Notes: a model not told the origin generated them from the letters alone. 64,000 bases of DNA from an uncultured archaeon (GCA_964384995.1 CAYLMJ010000001.1:24221-88220); one strand, 5' to 3'; counted from the stretch's first letter, positions 225 to 61,640 are shown. Numbers and translations: made by a program.

Positions 225-319
225 CCCTCCAACGAGCCTGCCTTGTTGCCTGCCTTGATGCCTGCCTGGGGCTTGCCTGGGGCTTGCCTTTGCCCTTGCA
301 TGCTCTGTGAAAACTTTCC

Positions 320-429
320 AAAACGTACACCAATCGTGTATCTACCGTTTACCTACCGTGTACCTAGCGTATACAAAACGTATGGAAAACGTATAGCGAA
401 CGTATACCTTTCGTATGGAATTCGTATAT
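320..429. repeat. Phased tandem array, ten 11-bp units, consensus NNNNCGTNTAN
   Basis: Direct reading in exact 11-bp phase: aaaacgtacac caatcgtgtat ctaccgtttac ctaccgtgtac ctagcgtatac aaaacgtatgg aaaacgtatag cgaacgtatac ctttcgtatgg aattcgtatat. Confidence 0.8.
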
Positions 430-434
430 CGAAA

Positions 435-22190: not shown

Positions 22191-24290
22191 GTGAACTATA
22201 TGGCTTTCAAGGACGTTATCGAAAAAGAGCCCCGCCGGGCCTACATGCTCACCAACGAGGCCATTGTACGTGCGGCCCTGGAGGCCGACGTCAAGGTGGT
22301 CTCCTTCTACCCCGGCGCGCCCCAGACCGAGATCATGGACACCTTCGACAGGGCCCTGGCCCACTTCGACTACCGGATGGAGGTGGCGGCCAACGAGAAG
22401 GTGGCCCTGGAGACCGTGGCCGGAGCCGCCATGGTGGGCCAGCGGTCCCTCACTTCCATGAAGAGCGTGGGCACCAACGTGGCCGCCGACGCCCTCTACT
22501 CCCTGGCCTACACCGGGGTGAAGGGGGGCTGTGTTTGCTGCATCGCCGACGACCCCTACGCCCACTCCTCCCAGTCGGAGCAGGACGGCCGCTGGTTCGG
22601 CAGTACCTCCTACCTGCCCATGCTGGAGCCCTCGGACCCGGTGGAGGCGGCTGATATGGTCAAGGCCTCCTTCGACCTTTCGGAAAAGTACGAGAGCCTG
22701 GTGCTGTTGAGGACCACCACCAGGGTCAACCACCAGAGCGGCGTGGTCCAGCTGAATCCCATTACGCGGACGCCTTTCGAGAAACTGTCGTGGGTGGAGA
22801 ACCGCCGCAAGTACGTCACCCTGGGCGCCATCGCCCGGGCCGGCAAGGAGCGAGTGCTGGAGAAGATGGAGCGCATCCGCAATGAGGTGGACCTGGCCCG
22901 GTTCAACCGGGTGGAGCACTTCGACGGCCAGGAGCTGGTGATCGGGAAGGAGGCCGCGGCCAAGACCTGCAAGGTGGGGATCATCACCGCCGGGGTGGGT
23001 TACAGCTACGCCCTGGAGAGCCTGATGAGGCTGGGTGCTGCGGCCAAGATGTTGAAGATAGGTGTGCTGAACCCCCTTCCAGAGGATGTCATCTCGACCT
23101 TCCTGGGCACCGTGGACCAGGTGGTGGTGGTGGAGGAGCTGTCGCCCTACATCGAGAACACGGTGACGGCCCTGGCCAAGGATGCGAATCCCGCCTGCGA
23201 GATAATCGGCAAGCGGTCGGGTCACTTCTCCGAGGCCCTGGAGTACAACATCCCAATCGTCATCGGGGTCCTGGCCCAGGTCACGGGGAAGGAACTGCCC
23301 TTCGACCATCAGGCCCATTCGGAAAAGCTGATGAAGCTGGCCGAGAGCCTGCCCCAGCGCCTGCCGGTATTCTGTGCCGGCTGTCCCCACCGGGCCACCT
23401 TCTGGTCGGTGCGGCGGGCCCTGCGCAAGCCCGATTCCGTCTTCTTTGCCAACGACATCGGCTGTTACTCCATGCTCAGCCTGGAGCCCATCGACTGGAC
23501 CGACTCCCTGCTCTGCATGGGCTCGTCCATGGGCGTGGCCGCCGGGGTCCAGCACAGCGCCCAGGAGAGGGCCATCGTGGCCCTGGGCGACTCCACCTTC
23601 TTCCACGCCGCCCTGCCTGGTGTGGTCAACGCGGTCCACAACCAGGACGACATGACGCTGATCATCCTTCACAACTCGGTGACCGCCATGACCGGGCAAC
23701 AGACCCATCCGGCCCATCCCCACCGAGCGGGGGGCATGCCCGGCGAACAGTTGGATATCGGAGCGGTGCTGGAGGGGCTGGGCGTGGGCAAGATCGTCCA
23801 CATCGATTCCTACGCCGATGTCAAGGCCAACATCAAGGCCTGCAAGGAGGCCCTGGACCACGAGGGGGTCTCGGCCATCATCTCCCATGGCGAGTGCGCC
23901 CTCTACCACTTCCGCAACTACCGCCACGCCGGCGGCAAGCTGGTGCCCTTCTTCGTGGACAAGGACATCTGCCGCAAGGCCTACACCTGCATCCGGGACT
24001 TCATGTGCCCGGCCATCTCCATCGATCCTTCGGACGGCAAGGCCCAGATCGCCCCCGAGCTCTGCGTGGGCTGCGGGGTGTGTTCCCAGCTCTGCGGCTG
24101 GAAGGCCATCAAGTCCACAGCCACCCTGCAGGGAGGCGAGAACAAGGCCTACATGGAGCTGGAAGACTACCATGAACTGCAGAAGGTGATCCAGGGGAAA
24201 GGCAAGGGCAAGGACAATGGCAATGGCAAGAGCAAGAGCAAGGGTAAAAGCAAAGGCAAGGGCTCTGCCAAGAAGGGAGGTGATGCCTGA
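22191..24290 (+). CDS. iorA: Indolepyruvate:ferredoxin oxidoreductase alpha subunit with a C-terminal Lys/Gly-rich tail
   Basis: TPP-binding GDSTFFHAALPG, two ferredoxin-type Cys clusters (CIRDFMCPAI, CVGCGVCSQLC), and tail GKGKGKDNGNGKSKSKGKSKGKGSAKKGG. GTG 22191 or ATG 22200 is the start. Confidence 0.9.
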   Translation: MNYMAFKDVIEKEPRRAYMLTNEAIVRAALEADVKVVSFYPGAPQTEIMDTFDRALAHFDYRMEVAANEKVALETVAGAAMVGQRSLTSMKSVGTNVAADALYSLAYTGVKGGCVCCIADDPYAHSSQSEQDGRWFGSTSYLPMLEPSDPVEAADMVKASFDLSEKYESLVLLRTTTRVNHQSGVVQLNPITRTPFEKLSWVENRRKYVTLGAIARAGKERVLEKMERIRNEVDLARFNRVEHFDGQELVIGKEAAAKTCKVGIITAGVGYSYALESLMRLGAAAKMLKIGVLNPLPEDVISTFLGTVDQVVVVEELSPYIENTVTALAKDANPACEIIGKRSGHFSEALEYNIPIVIGVLAQVTGKELPFDHQAHSEKLMKLAESLPQRLPVFCAGCPHRATFWSVRRALRKPDSVFFANDIGCYSMLSLEPIDWTDSLLCMGSSMGVAAGVQHSAQERAIVALGDSTFFHAALPGVVNAVHNQDDMTLIILHNSVTAMTGQQTHPAHPHRAGGMPGEQLDIGAVLEGLGVGKIVHIDSYADVKANIKACKEALDHEGVSAIISHGECALYHFRNYRHAGGKLVPFFVDKDICRKAYTCIRDFMCPAISIDPSDGKAQIAPELCVGCGVCSQLCGWKAIKSTATLQGGENKAYMELEDYHELQKVIQGKGKGKDNGNGKSKSKGKSKGKGSAKKGGDA

Positions 24291-27484: not shown

Positions 27485-27740
27485 CCGAACACCCAATCGC
27501 CTCCTCCTGCCGCAAGCCGCCGGTGTTCCACATAAAATGAGATAACTTCTTATTCGAGCACGCGGTAATTATCATCAGATGAAGGAAGCCCGCGAGCCAG
27601 CCAGCGACCGGGGACCCGCGACCCTGGGTCCGGCCGCCGGAGCCCGCCCCGCGGCCCCAAAAAGGCCCAGCTGTGCCTGCCCGCCAGATAGTTCCGGGGA
27701 CCCCTGGCAGGGAATGGCGTCCAGTACGGGAGACCCGCAG

Positions 27741-28037
27741 ACAACTCGGAGACATCTCGGAGATAACTCGGAGATAACTCGAAGACAACTCGAAGCCACC
27801 TCGAAGCTACCTCGAAGCTTCTACGAACGATATACGAAGGAGTTACGAACGAGTACCGAAGGAGTAGCGAAGGTTGAATATAGCGGTACTATGGCGGTAC
27901 TTTAGCGGTACTTTAGGGGTACTATGGCGGCAATATAGGATCGATATAGAATTGATATACAATTGATACAGCCGGAATACAGGACGGATAGGGAATGGGT
28001 ATGGGGCGAGTCTCGGGAGAGTAGACAGGAGACACGA
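27741..28037. repeat. Phased tandem array of 27 consecutive 11-bp units that drift progressively in sequence
   Basis: Exact 11-bp register from 27741: acaactcggag acatctcggag ataactcggag ataactcgaag acaactcgaag ccacctcgaag ctacctcgaag cttctacgaac gatatacgaag gagttacgaac gagtaccgaag gagtagcgaag gttgaatatag cggtactatgg cggtactttag cggtactttag gggtactatgg cggcaatatag gatcgatatag aattgatatac aattgatacag ccggaatacag gacggataggg aatgggtatgg ggcgagtctcg ggagagtagac aggagacacga. Confidence 0.85.
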
Positions 28038-28098: not shown

Positions 28099-31000
28099 AT
28101 GGCGGGCGCTCATACAACCCTGAGATGGATGCGGCTTGGCATCGTGATGTTCGGGACAGTCATCCTGTTACTGCTATGGGCAGGAGGAGAAGCCGAAGCT
28201 CAAGTGGACTACTCGATGGCCGTCGAGCACGACAGGATAAGGCTGTTGGAGAACGGGACCGGCGAGTCGAACCAGACCCTCTACCTTACCAACTTCTGCG
28301 CCCACACACTCACCATCGAATTAACGGTGGAACATGGGTCCCCAGTGGTCAATGTGACCCCCGTGGTGAGAACTGTGACACTGGGGTCTGGTGGTGATGG
28401 ACAGTACAATTATTCTATCGAATCCGAGAACGCGAATATCTCCAATGTTGAGGTGATCATCAACGGCAGGGTGACCCATGTCGATGGCGCAACCTCACCG
28501 GAACCGTACGAGCGCAGCGATACTTTCATTGTGCGAAAGCCTGCCAGTTTCGATTCTGATGGTTCACCCCTCATCTACTCAACATACGTGGGTGGCGAAG
28601 ACCGCGATCGAGGTTACAGCATGGCCGTCGATGATGATGGTTATGTCTATGTTACCGGTTATACCCGTTCAGCTGATTTCCCCATCACTGAAGGTGCCTT
28701 CAATGACACATTGAACGGATACCGGGACGTTTATGTTGCGAAACTGAGTCCCGACGGTTCGGATTTGATCTACTCCACATATGTAGGTGGGAGTAGTTAC
28801 GATGATATTGGTTCGGGAATTTGTGTCGATAATGAAGGAAGCGTTTACGTGGCAGGTTATACCGCTTCCGATGATTTTCCCACAACCCCAGGAGCGTACG
28901 ATAGGGAATACAACGGTGGTGAGGTGGACGGTTTCATATTCAAGCTTAGTCCCGATGGTTCAACTCTGGAGTACTCAACTTATATTGGTGGGAGTGCAAT
29001 TGATGGCATTCGGGATATTGCGATTGATAACAACAAGAACGTGACCGTGATCGGTATCACCAATTCCACGAACTTCCCAACCTCCACAACGGCAAAGGAC
29101 AGGTCTCACAACGGTCTCTTTGATGCCTTCGTCCTCAGGTTATCCGATAAAGGAACACAGCTCATGGCCTCCACATACCTAGGGGGCACGAATAATGACG
29201 AAGCTTATGCGATTGCACTTGACGACGATGGTCATGCATATGTGACAGGATACACAGAGTCTACAAACTTTCCGAAAACGAACGGGGTCTTTGACAGGAC
29301 CCACAACGGAGAGACCGACATCTTTGTTACCAAGGTCTCTCATAGTGGTACAACATTTCAATATTCAACCTTTGTGGGGGGTACGTATTGGGAGGAAGCA
29401 TACGATATCGTTCTGGACGATGAGGAATATGCCTATGTGACAGGCTTCACGGATTCCTACGATTTCCCCACTACTGATGGAGCATACAACCGATCCAAGA
29501 ATGGATGGTGGGAAGACATGTTCGTTTTCCAATTGAGTCCTTCGGGAACCTATCTCAAGTTCTCGACATACATTGGTGGGGAGGACGAAGATTACGGAAT
29601 GTCATTGGATGTGGATGTGGATGGCTCCGTTTACGCAGTTGGGCGTACATCTTCCAGGGACTTCCCCACCACTCCGGACACGTACAACCAGAGCACAGGC
29701 GGCAACATCATCCTTTTCATGCTAAAAGAGAATGGTACAGAGTTGGCATATTCATCAGCATTGGGTGGTTGGGAGGTGACTTATGTCTATGACATCGTCC
29801 ACTCGGGCAACGGCAACTGCTATGTCACGGGCTACACCTATTCCGGTTTCCCGGTTACGGATGGTGCCTATGATGAGACTCACAATATGGATAGTGACAT
29901 CTATGTCTTCAAGATGAAAGTGACCATCAACACTCCACTTATCGCCTCCATAAGATCCATATCACCGGCAGCTCCCAACGTGGGAGATGCGGTCAGCTTC
30001 AACGGCTCTGGTGAGGATTCCGACGGCTATATCACGGCCTATCAATGGCACTCGTCCATAGACGGCAACCTCAGCACCAATGTTTCGTTCACCACATCAA
30101 CACTCTCTCCTGGTGAGCACCTCATCACGTTCAGGGTCATGGACAATCGTAGTTACTGGTCAGAGAATGTCAGTCAGCTCCTCAATGTGAACCTCGTACC
30201 AACAGCTCACATTCAGTTGATGACCCCCGCCTACCAGCTCCAGGGCAAGACGGTCTATTTCAGAGGCTCAGGCAACGACACCGATGGTTCGGTGGAGGGC
30301 TACCAATGGGTCTCCAGCATCGATGGGACCATTTCCTCCAAGATGACCTTCAGCAAAACGACCCTCTCCAACGGAACCCACACCATCTCCTTCCGGGTCC
30401 AGGACGATGATGGTGCCTGGTCCTCCTGGGCCAATGCCTCCCTGAATATCCTGAATCCCGGAGAGGCTCCACCGGTGGCATCGATCATCTCCATCACCCC
30501 CACCTCTCTCAAAGCGGGTGAGCTGGTCAGCTTTCAGGGCAAGGGCGTCCACGCCTACTGGAATGTCACCCACTTTGCCTGGCATTCTGACATTCAGGGT
30601 TCGCTGGATCGGAACGAGACGTTCCATACCGATGAGCTGGTCCCCGGGACCCATACCATCAGCTTCAAGGTCACCGACGAGATGGGCGAGGAATCTGTGG
30701 AAGCGACCGCCATCGTGGTGGTGAGAGCGCCTGAAGGACAGGAGGACGATGACGACGGTCTGCCCCTCTTCCTCATCATCGGCGTCGTGGTCGTCCTCGT
30801 CGGTGCGGTGGGTGGATTCATGGCCTACAAGCAGAGACAGGGCGGGACTCCCGCGGTTCCAGCAGGCAAGGCCCAAGCCCCAGCAGCCAAAGCTCCTGCG
30901 CCAGCACCAGCACCAGCACCACCTTCTCCAGAAGCCGCCTACCAGCCTCCAGCAAAGGCTCCGGCTCCCGAACCTCAGAAGCCTCCTGCGCCAGAGACCG

Positions 31001-31110
31001 TCACGATCCAGTGTCCAAGCTGTCAGGGACGGATGAGGATACCGAAACTGGGCAGGCTTCAGCAGATCAAGTGTGAGGCGTGTGGATTGGAAGGTGAGTT
31101 GGAGGTCTAG
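28099..31110 (+). CDS. Surface protein: signal/anchor, SBBP-type beta-propeller repeats, three PKD-like domains, TM helix, Pro/Ala linker, C-terminal zinc ribbon
   Basis: Seven repeats of the form YSTY(V/I/L)GG ... D ... A(V/I)D ... G ... YVTGYT ... DFPTT.GA. Three repeats of GSG.D.DG ... Y.W.SSIDG. TM helix LFLIIGVVVVLVGAVGGFMAY. APAPAPAP linker. IQCPSCQGRMRIP ... IKCEACG. Confidence 0.85.
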   Translation: MAGAHTTLRWMRLGIVMFGTVILLLLWAGGEAEAQVDYSMAVEHDRIRLLENGTGESNQTLYLTNFCAHTLTIELTVEHGSPVVNVTPVVRTVTLGSGGDGQYNYSIESENANISNVEVIINGRVTHVDGATSPEPYERSDTFIVRKPASFDSDGSPLIYSTYVGGEDRDRGYSMAVDDDGYVYVTGYTRSADFPITEGAFNDTLNGYRDVYVAKLSPDGSDLIYSTYVGGSSYDDIGSGICVDNEGSVYVAGYTASDDFPTTPGAYDREYNGGEVDGFIFKLSPDGSTLEYSTYIGGSAIDGIRDIAIDNNKNVTVIGITNSTNFPTSTTAKDRSHNGLFDAFVLRLSDKGTQLMASTYLGGTNNDEAYAIALDDDGHAYVTGYTESTNFPKTNGVFDRTHNGETDIFVTKVSHSGTTFQYSTFVGGTYWEEAYDIVLDDEEYAYVTGFTDSYDFPTTDGAYNRSKNGWWEDMFVFQLSPSGTYLKFSTYIGGEDEDYGMSLDVDVDGSVYAVGRTSSRDFPTTPDTYNQSTGGNIILFMLKENGTELAYSSALGGWEVTYVYDIVHSGNGNCYVTGYTYSGFPVTDGAYDETHNMDSDIYVFKMKVTINTPLIASIRSISPAAPNVGDAVSFNGSGEDSDGYITAYQWHSSIDGNLSTNVSFTTSTLSPGEHLITFRVMDNRSYWSENVSQLLNVNLVPTAHIQLMTPAYQLQGKTVYFRGSGNDTDGSVEGYQWVSSIDGTISSKMTFSKTTLSNGTHTISFRVQDDDGAWSSWANASLNILNPGEAPPVASIISITPTSLKAGELVSFQGKGVHAYWNVTHFAWHSDIQGSLDRNETFHTDELVPGTHTISFKVTDEMGEESVEATAIVVVRAPEGQEDDDDGLPLFLIIGVVVVLVGAVGGFMAYKQRQGGTPAVPAGKAQAPAAKAPAPAPAPAPPSPEAAYQPPAKAPAPEPQKPPAPETVTIQCPSCQGRMRIPKLGRLQQIKCEACGLEGELEV

Positions 31111-31697: not shown

Positions 31698-33737
31698 CTA
31701 AGGCGGGTTGCGCGGCTTCCAGTGGTCGGGGTCGGCGGCCAGCTCCCTGCGTCTGGCCTTCCTGCCGGCGTTCCATGTGGCTATCTGAGTGGCCTTGTCC
31801 TCATCGAGCTCTCTCTCACGTTGGCGTCCAAGATAGTTGAACAGGGCCACTATGACGACCAGCAGGAGCAGGAGGCTTTGGGCGAACATGGCGTGAACAT
31901 CGGCTCTATCGACGTTCGAAGCATCATCCTCTCCGGGATATGACTCCCATATGGTTGCAGGCATCTTTCCCTTCTCCACAGGCAGTACCAGATTCTGGAA
32001 GTAATAGTGACTGGGAGTCTTCCTAATGGATATCAATACATTCATGTGGTCCTCATCGTAAAATGGAGGTACCTGGACCACGACCTCTTGTTCTTTCATG
32101 AACGGTGAAATTCGATAGTCTTGCTGGTAGGTGCTAATAGGGGCCCATAATCCAGCCATCATTTGACTATATACATTGAATCTTACCTCAGAATTATACG
32201 CGTACGAAGGGACCTCATCCTTCAACCTCATTCCATCCGGAATATGAAGTTTCAGACTATTCTTACTCCCCGTGAGGAGGGTTCCATTGGCTTCGACCAC
32301 CTGCATTTCAATGTCTTCGGCATGCTTATCACCACCATTCTCCCATGAGAACCATATACATTCAATATGGTTTCGATGGGAATAGGTGGATGAATTGTTG
32401 TAATACACATAGATCATCCCTTTCATTCCCCTTTCAACCGACACTTCAGGGCGGTCGAATTGTACTATCAGAGCGCCATCCAACCCGATGTGGTAATTAC
32501 CCTCATGCAGTATCCCGAAATCAGATAGATAGATCACTTTGACCTCCTCTCCTGCAGGCATCGGACTGTTGTTGGAGATCATCTGAAACTGTTGATAATG
32601 GCTATGATTAAAGCTCAAATAATCATGATACCACCGGTATAATCGAATTCGGCTAAATTTACTAGACTTATAGATATCAACTGAGTTGCCATTATAATGT
32701 GAGGTGCTCGAACCGTTGACCCACACTGCCCAGTCGAGATATGAGGATGACTTCTTGATGTACGAATAATCAAGGGTGAACTCTACCACACCACTTGCAT
32801 TGGTAACTCCACTCTCCCTGTGATCTGTTCCTCTGATACTCCAGGGGACCTCGACCTTCACCCCGCCAACCGGATGAGCATGTTTTTCTACGACCCCGAT
32901 CAACAGCACAGCTCGTTCCTCTTCGATGTTCTTCCACTTGTACCATGCCCTGTATGGTTCGTAGTAGACCTGGTAGTTGCTGAAGAGCTGATATGTTCCT
33001 TGTCCCTGCTCGTGAAAAACCGTACTTCGAAATTCGACAAAATCAACACTGGTTGAATTGAAGCGATGGGTGTCTGGTACCGTGTAGTTAAGTCCGTAAA
33101 TCCCCACCCCCCATCGCTCAAAATGGATCGTCTTTCCATCAGCTTTAATATCTACATTTGTCGGATCCACCATTGTCTGGTTGAATTGACATATCAATAC
33201 CAGGGTGAATTTCTCTCCGGGCAGGACCCGATCATAAGAACCGTATCTTATGAATTGGGTCTTCAGTCCGGTTGGTTCATCTCCCACGGTGTACTCGTAT
33301 TTTGAATGGGGATATTCCAGGGGTAATTCCCAACTCTCAATGTTGTACTCTAGAGTATATTCACCGATCAAACGGTGCCTGGCTTGAATATGGATAGAAT
33401 TGGACCACAGATGCGACTCTTCCAATTGAAAACTGATCAGATACTCCCCCACGCCAATTTGAACAGGTTGTAAGTAGAATCTTTCATGACGCTGGTTGGT
33501 AATGGTCACATTCAATTCCGGCAGTTCGACCCTTTCACCGTTCTTGAACCCATGCAGGGTCAGGTTGACGGTCTCATTCACTCTGAAGACACTTTGCTCC
33601 CGGGTAAGGTAAATATCCCAGTTAGGAAGGGTAGAGCTACTACTGCCAGAACCTCCCTCTGCATCCATCTTGAAGCTGAACACCATGCAGAAAAAGAGAA
33701 AGAAACACAGTGAAGCTGCTACCCTTAGGCGAACCAT
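31698..33737 (-). CDS. Low-GC secreted/membrane-anchored glycoprotein-like protein (679 aa) of unknown family
   Basis: N-terminal signal peptide (VAASLCFFLFFCMVFSF), many NxS/T sequons, C-terminal TM (LLLLLVVIVALFNYL) and a basic cytoplasmic tail. Ectodomain DNA is strongly A/T-enriched. Confidence 0.75.
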   Translation of the reverse strand: MVRLRVAASLCFFLFFCMVFSFKMDAEGGSGSSSSTLPNWDIYLTREQSVFRVNETVNLTLHGFKNGERVELPELNVTITNQRHERFYLQPVQIGVGEYLISFQLEESHLWSNSIHIQARHRLIGEYTLEYNIESWELPLEYPHSKYEYTVGDEPTGLKTQFIRYGSYDRVLPGEKFTLVLICQFNQTMVDPTNVDIKADGKTIHFERWGVGIYGLNYTVPDTHRFNSTSVDFVEFRSTVFHEQGQGTYQLFSNYQVYYEPYRAWYKWKNIEEERAVLLIGVVEKHAHPVGGVKVEVPWSIRGTDHRESGVTNASGVVEFTLDYSYIKKSSSYLDWAVWVNGSSTSHYNGNSVDIYKSSKFSRIRLYRWYHDYLSFNHSHYQQFQMISNNSPMPAGEEVKVIYLSDFGILHEGNYHIGLDGALIVQFDRPEVSVERGMKGMIYVYYNNSSTYSHRNHIECIWFSWENGGDKHAEDIEMQVVEANGTLLTGSKNSLKLHIPDGMRLKDEVPSYAYNSEVRFNVYSQMMAGLWAPISTYQQDYRISPFMKEQEVVVQVPPFYDEDHMNVLISIRKTPSHYYFQNLVLPVEKGKMPATIWESYPGEDDASNVDRADVHAMFAQSLLLLLVVIVALFNYLGRQRERELDEDKATQIATWNAGRKARRRELAADPDHWKPRNPP

Positions 33738-59308: not shown

Positions 59309-59965
59309 ATGACCCGGAACCCTGACCACCCAGGTGAGCGAAGCGGCAGACCAGGACCCGCCTTGATGCCGGCCCTGCTGAACGGAGCGTGCCTGCTCCT
59401 GCTGTTGCTGGTGGCGCTACCGGGGCAGGCGGAGGGCAATGACCTGAGCCTGGACCCCATCATGGTCACACCCAAGGAGCCGGAGAAGGGAGACCGCATA
59501 GCGGTGGTCTTCGTCGTGGAGAACCAGGGGGACAAGGTGGACCAGGTGCTGGTGGAAGGACGGGTGAACAACCGGACCCTGCTCTCCCGCACCATCTCGG
59601 TGGAGGCCGACAACGCCACGGCGCTGACCTTCTCCTTCGAGCTGGACTCAACGGTGGCCATCATAACGGTGGTGGTTGACCCCTACCAGGAAGTGAACGA
59701 TACCGACCGGACCAACAACCATCAGGTCCATGCCATCGAGGTGGAGGAGAAGGACAAGGGCGCTGGGATGCTGCTGGTGATAGTGGGCCTGGCGGTGCTG
59801 GGAGGCGGTCTGGTGGCCTACATGTACGTCATCAGGACCTCCAGCGTCGAAGGCTCGGGCGCTGAGGGTCAAAGGCCTGCTCCTGGAAGGCGCAATGATG
59901 AAGGTTCGAAGGATGAAGCCCGGGATGGCGACCGGGATGGGAAAGAGGCTGGAAAGGGGCCATAA
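59309..59965 (+). CDS. CARDB-like domain membrane protein
   Basis: Signal region LLNGACLLLLLLVALPG. GDRIAVVFVVENQGD ... VVVDPYQEVNDTDRTNN (CARDB-type end motif). TM MLLVIVGLAVLGGGLVAY. Alternative start ATG 59366. Confidence 0.75.
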   Translation: MTRNPDHPGERSGRPGPALMPALLNGACLLLLLLVALPGQAEGNDLSLDPIMVTPKEPEKGDRIAVVFVVENQGDKVDQVLVEGRVNNRTLLSRTISVEADNATALTFSFELDSTVAIITVVVDPYQEVNDTDRTNNHQVHAIEVEEKDKGAGMLLVIVGLAVLGGGLVAYMYVIRTSSVEGSGAEGQRPAPGRRNDEGSKDEARDGDRDGKEAGKGP

Positions 59966-60064
59966 GAAGGGGACTGAGCGGCCCGGAACGGAACGGGACA
60001 AGGCTCGGCTCGAGACCCCGGTCTGGGGACAGGAAGATGATGAGGAGGAAGGGAGCGAAAGGGC

Positions 60065-60229
60065 TCAGGCGTCGAACTCGTCCTGAAGCTCGGTGACCAG
60101 CTGGTCGAGCACCTCGTCGAACTCGGAGGAGCGCAGGACCTTCTGGTTCTGGAACCGGGAGGAATCGACCCGGACGATGTAGCTGGCGCCTTCCTTGAGC
60201 AATTCGATGGAACAGACGTCTTCACTCAT
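60065..60229 (-). CDS. Possible 54-aa acidic protein (too short for the ORF track)
   Basis: Own translation: MSEDVCSIELLKEGASYIVRVDSSRFQNQKVLRSSEFDEVLDQLVTELQDEFDA. More protein-like than the overlapping 118-aa frame 59869..60225. Confidence 0.35.
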   Translation of the reverse strand: MSEDVCSIELLKEGASYIVRVDSSRFQNQKVLRSSEFDEVLDQLVTELQDEFDA

Positions 60230-60459
60230 GGGGCTCAACGAGGCGCCGCATCGACGGGGGGTTTAAAAAGCTTCCCAACGACCTTTTCTGAGAAAAGGTC
60301 GAACAAAAGAGGTTGACCCCCCGCTCGCTACGCTCGCGGGAGGTCCATGGTCAGTGATGGTTATAGATATTGGATGGTCGAGGGAAGACCCATCTGGATG
60401 AGGTGCCGGTCGAATGAGAGGACGAGCGTGTGGACCCAAAAAGAGAGTAGAGAAGCAAT

Positions 60460-60580
60460 AAGCCAGTACTTTATCAGTACTTTACCAGCACTATGGCAGT
60501 AGTATAGGATCAGTATAGCCGGAGTATAGAATGAGTATAGCGGGAGTATAGAGAGATTCTCAATTTAGTATGCAAGATGT
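60460..60580. repeat. Phased tandem array, eleven 11-bp units, partly collinear with 27895..27949
   Basis: aagccagtact ttatcagtact ttaccagcact atggcagtagt ataggatcagt atagccggagt atagaatgagt atagcgggagt atagagagatt ctcaatttagt atgcaagatgt. Weaker periodic words continue to about 60700. Confidence 0.8.
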
Positions 60581-60736
60581 GGACCCCGAGTGCCCCGGTC
60601 GGACCGAACTGTCGGGTCGGAACTGGCGGTGAGGAAGCGTCACAGAAGGCTAAGCGTTACAGAAGTCGGTCGATGATGGGAGGGAGAGGAGCGGTGTTAC
60701 TGAGGGGCAGGGATTTGTGATAATACCGAGGCGGTT

Positions 60737-61267
60737 CTATGGGTCCACTTGTTGACAATAATATTTCATGTAATATTTCACTTTATTCGGTTCACCGAAT
60801 TCCGAGGCGAAAGCATCAATGAACCGTTCGCTATGAGGTGTAAATAGTACGAGTTCTTTTTGATACGTTCTATTTGCTTTGTGGTATTCAATCGTATCAG
60901 CCCATGAATCACAATATATATTGATATAAAGTCCAGTTCTATTCTCTCTGATCCAACCTTCTGCAGCCATTGGGGCATCAGTATAATTGTTATAAAGATG
61001 GAATATGCCAAGTGTAAATACTGTCTCATTCACATGCCATTCGTCTAGTATGAATGTTCGATTATATGTCTCATTTTGGAAAAAATGATAAAGTTGGGTA
61101 TGATTAATTGAATCCAAATCGTATTCAATCCTGACTGCGGGACCCATATAGTAACAGCCTGAACCAGATGGATCGTCATCCTTCAGAAAATAAGATGCTA
61201 GAATAACCAATGAAATGATAATTACAATAATCAAGAATATCAGGGCAGGTTTTCGACCCACTTTCAT
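60737..61267 (-). CDS. Very low-GC membrane-anchored protein (176 aa), unknown family
   Basis: N-terminal anchor ALIFLIIVIIISLVILASYF. Asn/Tyr-rich ectodomain with 7 NxS/T sequons. DNA is about 33% GC in a hand-counted 60-nt sample. Confidence 0.65.
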   Translation of the reverse strand: MKVGRKPALIFLIIVIIISLVILASYFLKDDDPSGSGCYYMGPAVRIEYDLDSINHTQLYHFFQNETYNRTFILDEWHVNETVFTLGIFHLYNNYTDAPMAAEGWIRENRTGLYINIYCDSWADTIEYHKANRTYQKELVLFTPHSERFIDAFASEFGEPNKVKYYMKYYCQQVDP

Positions 61268-61493
61268 CAGTATTTTATTGTTAGGTTCTTATTTAATGAT
61301 GTTGTTGACGAATCAACCTACTTACTTACTAATCCGATGAGCGTTGTCCGGTGGACAGACGCCCGTTCCAGAACCCAGCCTCTTTGTGACAGATAACAAT
61401 CACCAAGGCCCCATCGCGAGGCTCGCTTGCGAGTCGAGTCGATGGGGCATTATTCTTCCCTATGAGCTTTATCCCGAAGGGAGAAAGAGAAGG

Positions 61494-61565
61494 TAGCCCC
61501 GGACGGATTTGAACCGTCGTCACCGGCTCCAAAGGCCGGTATGATTACCCCTACACTACGGGGCC
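61494..61565 (-). tRNA. tRNA-Gln (anticodon TTG)
   Basis: Minus strand GGCCCCG TA GTGT AGGGGTAA TCAT A CCGGC CTTTGGA GCCGG TGAC GACGG TTCAAAT CCGTC CGGGGCT A. The 7-bp acceptor has G1-U72, there are 5-bp anticodon and T stems, the T-loop is TTCAAAT, and the anticodon loop is C-T-TTG-G-A. 72 nt, no encoded CCA. Confidence 0.85.
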
Positions 61566-61640
61566 ACGCCGCGTCGATGAGCCCTCGGGTTTTAGCGTTT
61601 ATGGTCCCGAATGTCCCAGCTGGAGGTTTATTCACACAAC

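Follow-up and report, generated by a model that had tools for sequence, protein, structure and literature searches.

Dispersed 11-bp repeat arrays with a common unit order in an uncultured archaeon and their association with a small-protein gene family

The CarH operator consists of three to four 11-bp direct repeats that overlap a promoter and are read by a repressor oligomer through a MerR-type DNA-binding domain; the number of repeats is fixed and small, and the array is not known to expand or disperse. The operator is described as a set of tandem 11-bp direct repeats (PMC9304148). At parC of R1, two sets of five 11-bp iterons lie around the promoter and each iteron is bound by one ParR dimer; parC is situated at the promoter of the operon of its own binding protein, and one protein unit binds per repeat, cooperatively and with autoregulation (PMC2241845). 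PhoP binds direct repeat units of 11 nt, one monomer to each, and extends cooperatively into poorly conserved units, the units of PHO boxes (PhoP/PhoB) being made up of a conserved core and a variable part and occupied by monomers arranged head to tail (PMC2691820). The tandem repeats of Borg elements are reported to arise independently at each site (PMC9879509).

The array described here is found at 60.46 kb of a 64,000-nt window (the whole stretch of DNA that was analysed), corresponding to C1:24221-88220 of a 2.63-Mb, 79-contig assembly of an uncultured archaeon. It comprises eight clear units with degenerate units flanking it on both sides, and it matches part of a much longer array near 27.9 kb of the same window. 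The features concerned are as follows.

60464..60551, + strand: the array under study, eight in-phase 11-bp units, namely CAGTACTTTAx twice, CAGCACTATGG, CAGTAGTATAG, GATCAGTATAG and then three of the form NNNGAGTATAG
60431..60463, + strand: three degenerate in-register units on its 5' side, TGGACCCAAAA AGAGAGTAGAG AAGCAATAAGC
60552..60584, + strand: three decaying in-register units on its 3' side, AGAGATTCTCA ATTTAGTATGC AAGATGTGGAC
27719..28015, + strand: a long composite array of 24-27 units without indel (start at 27719 or 27741)
27884..27982, + strand: segment of the long array that shows homology with the array at 60.46 kb, a GTACT module leading to GATCGATATAG and CCGGAATACAG

From its fifth unit onwards (60508), the 60.46-kb array has in each unit 4 variable bases and the 7-bp core AGTATAG, a 4+7 layout like that of PhoP operators. 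The degenerate flanking units are also represented elsewhere in the genome, as AAAAAGAGA..CAATAAGC on the 5' side is common to the 5' flank of the paralogous array C7:90721, and TTTAGTATG-N4-ATGTG on the 3' side is common to the 3' end of the paralogue C6:70577. The long array passes through AACTCGGAG, CCTCGAAG, CTTCTACGAA and GAGTAxCGAAG to the GTACT module, and from there through GATCGATATAG, AATTGATAyAs and CCGGAATACAG to a decaying tail, ending 84 nt 5' of the ATG of an SBBP/PKD gene. A BLAST search with this array gave 11 paralogous pieces, all of them in the same genome.

An earlier note on this DNA had aligned five units of the two arrays by hand and had held that independent slippage would not have produced the same succession of units twice. 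Its units, letters and coordinates were reproduced exactly at both sites. The units at 60464-60518 (CAGTACTTTAT CAGTACTTTAC CAGCACTATGG CAGTAGTATAG GATCAGTATAG) and those at 27895-27949 (CGGTACTTTAG CGGTACTTTAG GGGTACTATGG CGGCAATATAG GATCGATATAG) agree at 9, 9, 8, 8 and 9 positions, giving 43/55 in a single 11-bp register, while the ten remaining registers of the same array pair give 18-26 matches each. When unit order was shuffled in both arrays, a score of 43 was reached in 11 of 20,000 trials (mean 33.0 and sd 2.5 for the best 5-unit in-register block), and when letters were shuffled within columns it was reached in 44 of 20,000. Shuffling only the units of the short array, which is conservative because the long array then retains its local blocks, gave 199 of 20,000. 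By unit-level Smith-Waterman alignment of the 60.46-kb array with the whole 24-unit array, the observed score was attained in 2 of 5,000 shuffles, and with the GTACT part of the 27.9-kb array only in 62 of 3,000 (p ~0.02). The ordered match is real, although this pair taken alone reaches only moderate significance; what makes it convincing is the recurrence of the same unit order at three other loci (12/3,000 for C6:70577, 48/3,000 for C34:1090-1367 and 197/3,000 for C7:90721 in the unit-order test). The two arrays are homologous copies, with a unit order common to dispersed loci, and not the outcome of independent slippage; the templated process that the note named as an alternative is not required to account for them.

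To place these arrays within the genome, a self-match scan was conducted at each lag from 5 to 24. Lag 11 gave 50-52 arrays and lags divisible by neither 3 nor 11 gave 0-7; the 52 arrays of period 11 compare with 4-7 for periods 10, 13 and 14, and no other period was enriched. Removing eight weak matches and merging neighbours left ~40 array loci. The steps from unit to unit are exactly 11 bp in 299 of 304 cases. Clustering across the genome, in which orientation and register were assigned greedily through common 7- and 8-mers, joined all arrays into one network with unit orders recurring among loci. We thus have high confidence that the 60.46-kb array is a member of a superfamily of ~40 non-coding arrays that are phase-locked at 11 bp, grow and shrink by whole units and are homologous in the order of these units.

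One recurring order of this superfamily runs AACTCGGAG > CCTCGAAG > CTTCTACGAA > GAGTAACGAAG, after which it branches to GAGTATAG, GACCTTAG, GAGCGAAG or AACCATCGAAG, and a second runs CGTACACCAAT > CGTGTATCTAC > CGTTTACCTAC > AACGTATAG. The order of the 60.46-kb module was found at five loci, these being 27.9 kb and 60.46 kb of the window together with C6:70577, C7:90721 (reverse strand) and C34:1090-1367 (reverse strand). It starts with at least one CAGTACTTTxx, followed by at least one CAGTACTATGG and by CAGTA(G/C)TATAG, and proceeds through GAT(C/T)(G/A)(A/G)TATAG and an optional AATTGATATAC to CCGGA(A/G)TA(T/C)AG. The 60.46-kb array is most closely related to C6:70577 (unit-order p=0.004), not to the 27.9-kb array. 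The arrays are mosaics of modules, since this module sits behind a CTCGAAG module in the 27.9-kb and C34 arrays and starts alone at the other three loci. CGG or GGG opens five consecutive units of the 27.9-kb array where the other loci have CAG, which points to homogenisation within the array or to independent expansion after the split; simple duplication is insufficient for that detail.

The window holds a third array of the superfamily near its start, preceded by repeats of another composition.

324..433, + strand: third window array, of the CGTATAG branch, which starts CGTACACCAAT CGTGTATCTAC CGTTTACCTAC and continues with the core CGTATAs
236..300, + strand: a pyrimidine-rich 12/11-bp array with GCCTGCCTTGAT and TGCCTGGGGCT, 5' of the purine-rich array

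The sharp 5' start of the array at 324..433 is common to C11:10158, C54:326 and C62:9863. A GCCTGATGCCTGCCTG stretch similar to the pyrimidine-rich array is found 5' of arrays associated with small-protein genes (described below) at C22 in this genome and in two relatives. At 437-462, after the array, there is a motif, CCCGGGGATCGAACC, resembling the reverse complement of the T-loop and acceptor end of a tRNA, and similar motifs follow arrays at L220, L222 and L223 of a sister species, just before the start codon. Neither ARAGORN nor Rfam called a tRNA at motifs of this type or beside the first window array; the motif may be what is left of an att site, or it may belong to a conserved leader. 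At 120-235, runs of the heptamer CACAGAG are followed by an inverted copy (CTCTGTG...), and the arrays at C7:90570, C13:43003 and C51:5115 directly adjoin a related hairpin, CACGGATTTCACAGAT...AATCCGTG.

The arrays coincide with many of the contig breaks in these MAGs, as many contigs end inside arrays or have N runs there. Since assembly breaks at the arrays, both the number and the length of arrays given here are underestimates. Examples of N runs inside arrays are C34:1195-1268 and C50:6630-6728, and at least eight contigs end in an array or no more than 350 bp from one.

The genomic context of the arrays was read from rough home-made gene calls, ARAGORN and an ORF listing. The neighbours of the two matching arrays are given here.

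28099..31110, + strand: gene of a 1003-aa surface protein, GC 49-51%, with signal peptide, SBBP beta-propeller repeats and PKD domains
60737..61267, - strand: gene of a 176-aa membrane-anchored protein, very low GC, without Pfam match
61492..61565, - strand: tRNA-Gln(TTG), its 3' end facing into the low-GC islet, which runs up to the array

The surface protein gene is co-oriented with the long array and lies directly 3' of it, and the gene of the 176-aa protein points with its 3' end at the 60.46-kb array, from whose 3' side it is separated by 185 nt. The low-GC neighbourhood that had been remarked upon in the earlier note holds for the neighbour genes of both arrays and is also present genome-wide, where a 1-kb flank below 55% GC was found for 35% of arrays as against 13% of control spacers (Mann-Whitney p=3e-5). 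The adjacency has a polarity, with the lower-GC flank on the 3' side of the array in 24 of 33 cases (binomial p=0.014). Orientation with respect to the neighbouring genes is not fixed, since ~16 arrays precede a co-oriented gene by 20-300 nt and ~14 face the 3' end of a convergent one.

It had further been proposed that such arrays form mobile or recombinogenic boundaries of surface-gene cassettes, and this part of the proposal fared poorly. The arrays are not paired around segments and have no inverted termini, and surface-like neighbour genes are not significantly linked to them (13/30 vs 308/1037, p=0.11). Inspection of 59900-61620 revealed neither terminal inverted repeats nor target duplications, and no att-type duplicate of a tRNA end, that of tRNA-Gln included; the flanks of the paralogous arrays compared are unrelated on both sides. 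The exact junction words CCTCGAAGCTTCTACGA and CAGYACTATGGCAGTA gave chance matches only, without arrays, in metagenome and viral contigs.

Among 40 genomes of the same order, arrays were present in one sister species only, in which CGAAG-type arrays occur and GTATRS triplets number 0, compared with 68 in this genome. At the equivalent positions of the sister species nothing corresponds to the 27.7-kb array and its SBBP gene, or to the tRNA-Gln islet at 60.2-61.5 kb; the DNA of that species is ~71-85% identical over matched segments and too rearranged and fragmented for insertion boundaries to be defined. The neighbour on the nifU side differs in that species and both relevant contigs end near the islet. 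The low-GC surface-protein genes at 31698-33737 and 28099-31110 also have no match at the corresponding places there, and the conserved genes flanking them lie ~590 bp apart in the sister species as opposed to 2.2 kb.

When the 3' sides of all arrays were read, three were seen to be followed, 40-93 nt on, by paralogous genes whose products start MAKIRK or MAKMEQ. These are the family genes of this genome.

C8:93232-93840, - strand: small-protein family gene
C20:40177-40926, + strand: small-protein family gene
C22:32230-32706, + strand: small-protein family gene

All three copies thus have an array upstream, against a background of only ~1% of the genes of this genome with a co-oriented array in that position. 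The sister species has eight copies, six with an array upstream, while the remaining two each come second in a tandem pair. Over the whole sample of ~36 family loci, which is non-random, the array is clear at 23 of the 36 genes read, weak at three and missing from ten, five of the latter again being second genes of tandem pairs. The arrays are located mostly 20-200 nt upstream of the start (~370-460 nt in one contig) and their sense at the linked genes is constant, with the purine-rich strand in the direction of the gene. Seen from the side of the arrays, only three of the ~40 in this genome adjoin a family gene, and no pseudogene remnants of the family were found beside the orphan arrays of this genome. 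The 60.46-kb and 27.9-kb arrays are both orphans, so functional statements about these two rest on their membership of the superfamily.

The array of the C22 copy is conserved across species. Its orthologues in three more species (ENA assemblies), with 58-72% protein identity across the alignment, have arrays of the order ..GATAGCTGG > ATACGAGAGAG > CAAGCTCAG(T/G)ATACCCTG > AAAGACCTTAG > (GATGACCTTAG)n, where n=3-7 among species. This trajectory is conserved in five species, and the DNA farther upstream is unalignable. Change by whole units was observed directly between samples of one species, L232 having one more 11-bp unit than L231 and L233. As one array trajectory stays before an orthologous gene in five species, which is not the behaviour of a mobile boundary, the array at this gene behaves, judged by its conservation, like a gene-linked cis element.

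A number of other elements were observed around the family genes. Beside the array-linked gene of C22, a 477-aa low-scoring ORF (C22:32748-34181) looks by eye like a DDE transposase of the IS1634/IS4 type. Upstream of a family gene in a related species, L236 and L237, from two samples (ENA ERZ24794671, ERZ24794656), differ by an inserted segment whose start coincides exactly with a tRNA gene's 3' end and which resembles an integrated-element polymorphism. A conserved AT-rich box, TTTTTTAAAA-N10-GTACCACAAG-N3-TTTTAT, is found upstream, ~60-230 nt from the array start, before small-protein genes at L219, L220, L222, L223 and L226 of the sister species and at C8:94149(-), C22:150(-) and C37:12199(-) of this genome. 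It resembles a BRE/TATA promoter of the archaeal type in which the initially transcribed region is conserved, all promoter calls in this work being consensus matches only.

The gene family is not confined to archaea. A profile search of 1.84 billion representative proteins gave 1,995 clusters defined at 50% identity (1,004 at E<=1e-10), most members having 180-195 aa; of six clusters sampled, one had a name from its source, and this was only 'hypothetical protein'. The distribution of the family is patchy, with one genus among 138 sampled in Thermoplasmatota and 4 of 251 Anaerolineae genomes, and it also occurs in Hymenobacter. The family is often multi-copy in Chloroflexota, Bacteroidota and the one Thermoplasmatota genus, and often encountered on very short metagenome contigs. 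Among 14 Anaerolineae and Hymenobacter genes read, a clear 11-bp array lies at -200 to -10 of the start codon in nine and a weak one in one, and further metagenome contigs provided two clear cases and one weak; Anaerolineae and other metagenome-contig family genes together give 11 clear and two weak cases of 21. No 11-bp array was found elsewhere in 37 kb of Anaerolineae and Hymenobacter loci, and in Anaerolineae genomes arrays occur almost exclusively at family genes. Arrays and gene family are statistically linked in both domains.

These further arrays also draw on units known from the archaeal ones. G335:C10 has GATCAGTATAG three times, identical to window 60508-60518, and G335:C46 has CAGCACTATAG GATCACTATAG GATGAGTATAG GATCAGTATAG; G455 carries GTACGAAGGAT, G333 CCCGAAGGATG and L288 CAGAAGCGAAC, and CAGTACAGGAA is carried by three loci. 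Among these, GATCAGTATAG, CAGCACTATAG, GTACGAAGGAT and CCCGAAGGATG belong to the archaeal unit vocabulary. It is the vocabulary alone that is in common, the cross-domain unit order being not significant when compared with the window arrays (p=0.18-0.38). The G335:C46 array (23921-23957, L280) is an orphan in Anaerolineae, situated between a gene end and an RHS/YD-repeat-like frame (QYFYDGNG...), and its units are nearly equal to those of the 60.46-kb array. In a tree of 28 family proteins the archaeal copies form one clade (support 85/76), and the type of array follows the protein clade, with GTACAGG at 100/100, xxACTATA/AGTATAG at 96/98 and the CTCGAAG/CTCGGAG orthologue pair at 99/99.

For the proteins of this family, of ~187 aa and starting MAK(I/V)..., searches of Pfam, NCBIfam and PHROGs gave nothing but weak Ig-like hits, and a PDB sequence search was empty. 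AlphaFold with 102 sequences gave a confident model (pLDDT 91.6), in which residues 1-92 are predicted to form a small beta sheet with three helices and residues 96-189 a beta sandwich (Ig-like). Foldseek against PDB and BFVD recognised the sandwich only, leaving the N-terminal domain without fold match, and neither a ribbon-helix-helix nor another recognisable DNA-binding fold was found in the model, all matches being Ig-like. The median pI is 10.2 for the N-terminal domain (basic) and 4.7 for the C-terminal domain (acidic). As no signal peptide is present in the sequences read, the protein is probably cytoplasmic. No ParM/ParA-type gene was present among the neighbours of family loci in the gene lists.

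The reading that we favour, tentatively and with rather less than even confidence, is that the arrays are helically phased docking sites for the ~187-aa family as candidate reader. Each 11-bp unit would be one docking site consisting of 4 variable bases and a core of ~7 bp and, with one site per helical turn, all sites would lie on the same face of the DNA. Protomers of a sequence-reading protein would bind head to tail and spread cooperatively from a well-conserved core into drifting units, so that the period would be kept under selection while the sequence wanders. The candidate reader would be the protein described above, with its basic N-terminal domain and its acidic Ig-like C-terminal domain, and the position of arrays upstream of the family's own genes in archaea and bacteria suggests that these proteins autoregulate. 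In this archaeon the sites would have multiplied into many spacers, preferentially beside lower-GC DNA, and from such dispersed sites the same proteins would be able to influence the genes nearby. We favour action at the DNA level because one site per turn explains the invariance of the period across cores, species and domains. The strict period, the homology of unit order, the gene link, the clade-matched array type and the confident protein model all count for docking; the facts that most arrays are orphans and that about a third of the sampled family genes have no array count against it, as does the failure to recognise a DNA-binding fold in the protein, and strong drift of the core within one array is a poor fit to a single sequence-specific reader.

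The arrays might instead act as RNA, which we consider less likely. They would be transcribed as 5' leaders or stand-alone non-coding RNAs, offering tandem sites to the linked or another RNA-binding factor, or Shine-Dalgarno-like AGGA repeats that hold ribosomes or sequester a regulator. Seven Anaerolineae loci have their best sigma-70-like -10 box 2-60 nt upstream of the array, examples being TGCTATAAT and TTGACT-N18-TATACT, which places the array between promoter and start codon; the array there is probably transcribed, and at these loci a role at the RNA level is equally possible. The AT-rich, TATA-like TTTTTTAAAA-N10-GTACCACAAG is upstream of the array at C8 and in the sister species, but at the SBBP gene and the C22-type genes a TATA-like box is downstream of the array. 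The fixed sense of the purine-rich strand at linked genes would suit an RNA, as would the AGGA(T/G) found in many units; AGGA is, however, absent from many archaeal units, including most of those at 60.46 kb and 27.9 kb, and AGGR occurs in every unit of some arrays only, these two not among them. Furthermore, there is no obvious reason for a strict 11-nt period in single-stranded RNA, and about half of the arrays of the genome face convergent 3' ends, where a sense RNA would serve no gene. GGA-repeat regulatory RNAs of the CsrB/RsmZ type, or known leader RNAs, would be expected to match a curated RNA family and the former to have GGA in every repeat; over 11 array-bearing loci no Rfam match was obtained, even at E<=1.

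It is improbable, in our judgement, that the arrays are functionless minisatellites, in which case an ancestral 11-bp array would have spread by duplication or recombination, the period would come from slippage by whole units and the gene link would be a matter of hitch-hiking. Identical neighbouring units (CCAGAGTATAG x4, GATGACCTTAG x4-7) and the whole-unit polymorphism of L232 against L231 and L233 are classic signatures of slippage, copy numbers and sets of arrays differ sharply between the sister species, as the GTATRS counts illustrate, and contigs often break in arrays. Minisatellites or VNTRs should nevertheless not be conserved beyond close relatives, and here one trajectory has been kept in five species at 58-72% protein identity with unalignable DNA upstream. 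Both the association and the vocabulary recur in Chloroflexota and other contigs, a recurrence that neutral hitch-hiking would not predict, and the lack of enrichment of any other period also argues against this explanation.

Least probable of all is the mobile cassette end or recombination site carrying low-GC (surface) genes, for although the arrays are enriched with polarity beside lower-GC DNA, neither the 27.7-kb array and its SBBP gene nor the tRNA-Gln islet has an equivalent at the corresponding places in the sister species, one array-linked gene adjoins an IS-type transposase (called by eye) and the linked family is patchy and multi-copy, each structural hallmark tested (pairing, inverted termini, target duplications, a tRNA-end duplicate) was missing, paralogues have unrelated flanks on both sides, exact junction words gave no array-bearing matches in viral and metagenome collections, and the array keeps its place ahead of one gene from species to species.

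A broader form of the docking reading may also be put forward, as a speculation that we regard as doubtful. Arrays and ~187-aa protein would together make up a previously undescribed two-part system of Chloroflexota, other bacteria and one Thermoplasmatota lineage, in which the protein, with a new basic N-terminal fold, polymerises head to tail along 11-bp (or 11-nt) repeats, spreading from a conserved core; in this genome ~40 polar nucleation sites would edge recently acquired low-GC genes, silencing or insulating foreign DNA. The logic of xenogeneic silencing is analogous, but there without dedicated repeat 'landing strips'.

Phase-locked repeat arrays recur in prokaryotic spacers without explanation. 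Here arrays, vocabulary and a candidate partner protein are conserved together from bacteria to archaea, which turns odd repeats into a testable pair. If the link holds, a function could be assigned to ~2,000 sequence clusters that carry no annotation and, if the docking reading is true, the arrays would show that a cis element can preserve its period alone while its sequence drifts. They might also reveal how newly acquired surface-protein genes are controlled in an uncultured archaeon.

When set against the described systems, the arrays resemble Borg repeats in being intergenic, head to tail and subject to fast change by whole units (PMC9879509); compared with the independent origins reported there, they share period, vocabulary and unit order among loci and species, with period and vocabulary extending even across domains, and are tied to one gene family. 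Phased operators have a period of about one helical turn (10-11 bp), and this is the step observed here. With parC-ParR the arrays have in common exact 11-bp tandem direct repeats in sets of five or more. They differ from parC in being chromosomal, in numbering ~40 per genome with up to 27 units each, in their drifting cores and in having a putative reader, which has no ribbon-helix-helix fold and no ParM/ParA-type partner nearby. PHO operators have 2-9 units, one core motif and a winged-helix response regulator as reader, while the arrays are longer and have many core motifs and an unrelated candidate reader. By analogy, PHO-box operators would still be the best available model for a period that is conserved while the sequence drifts.
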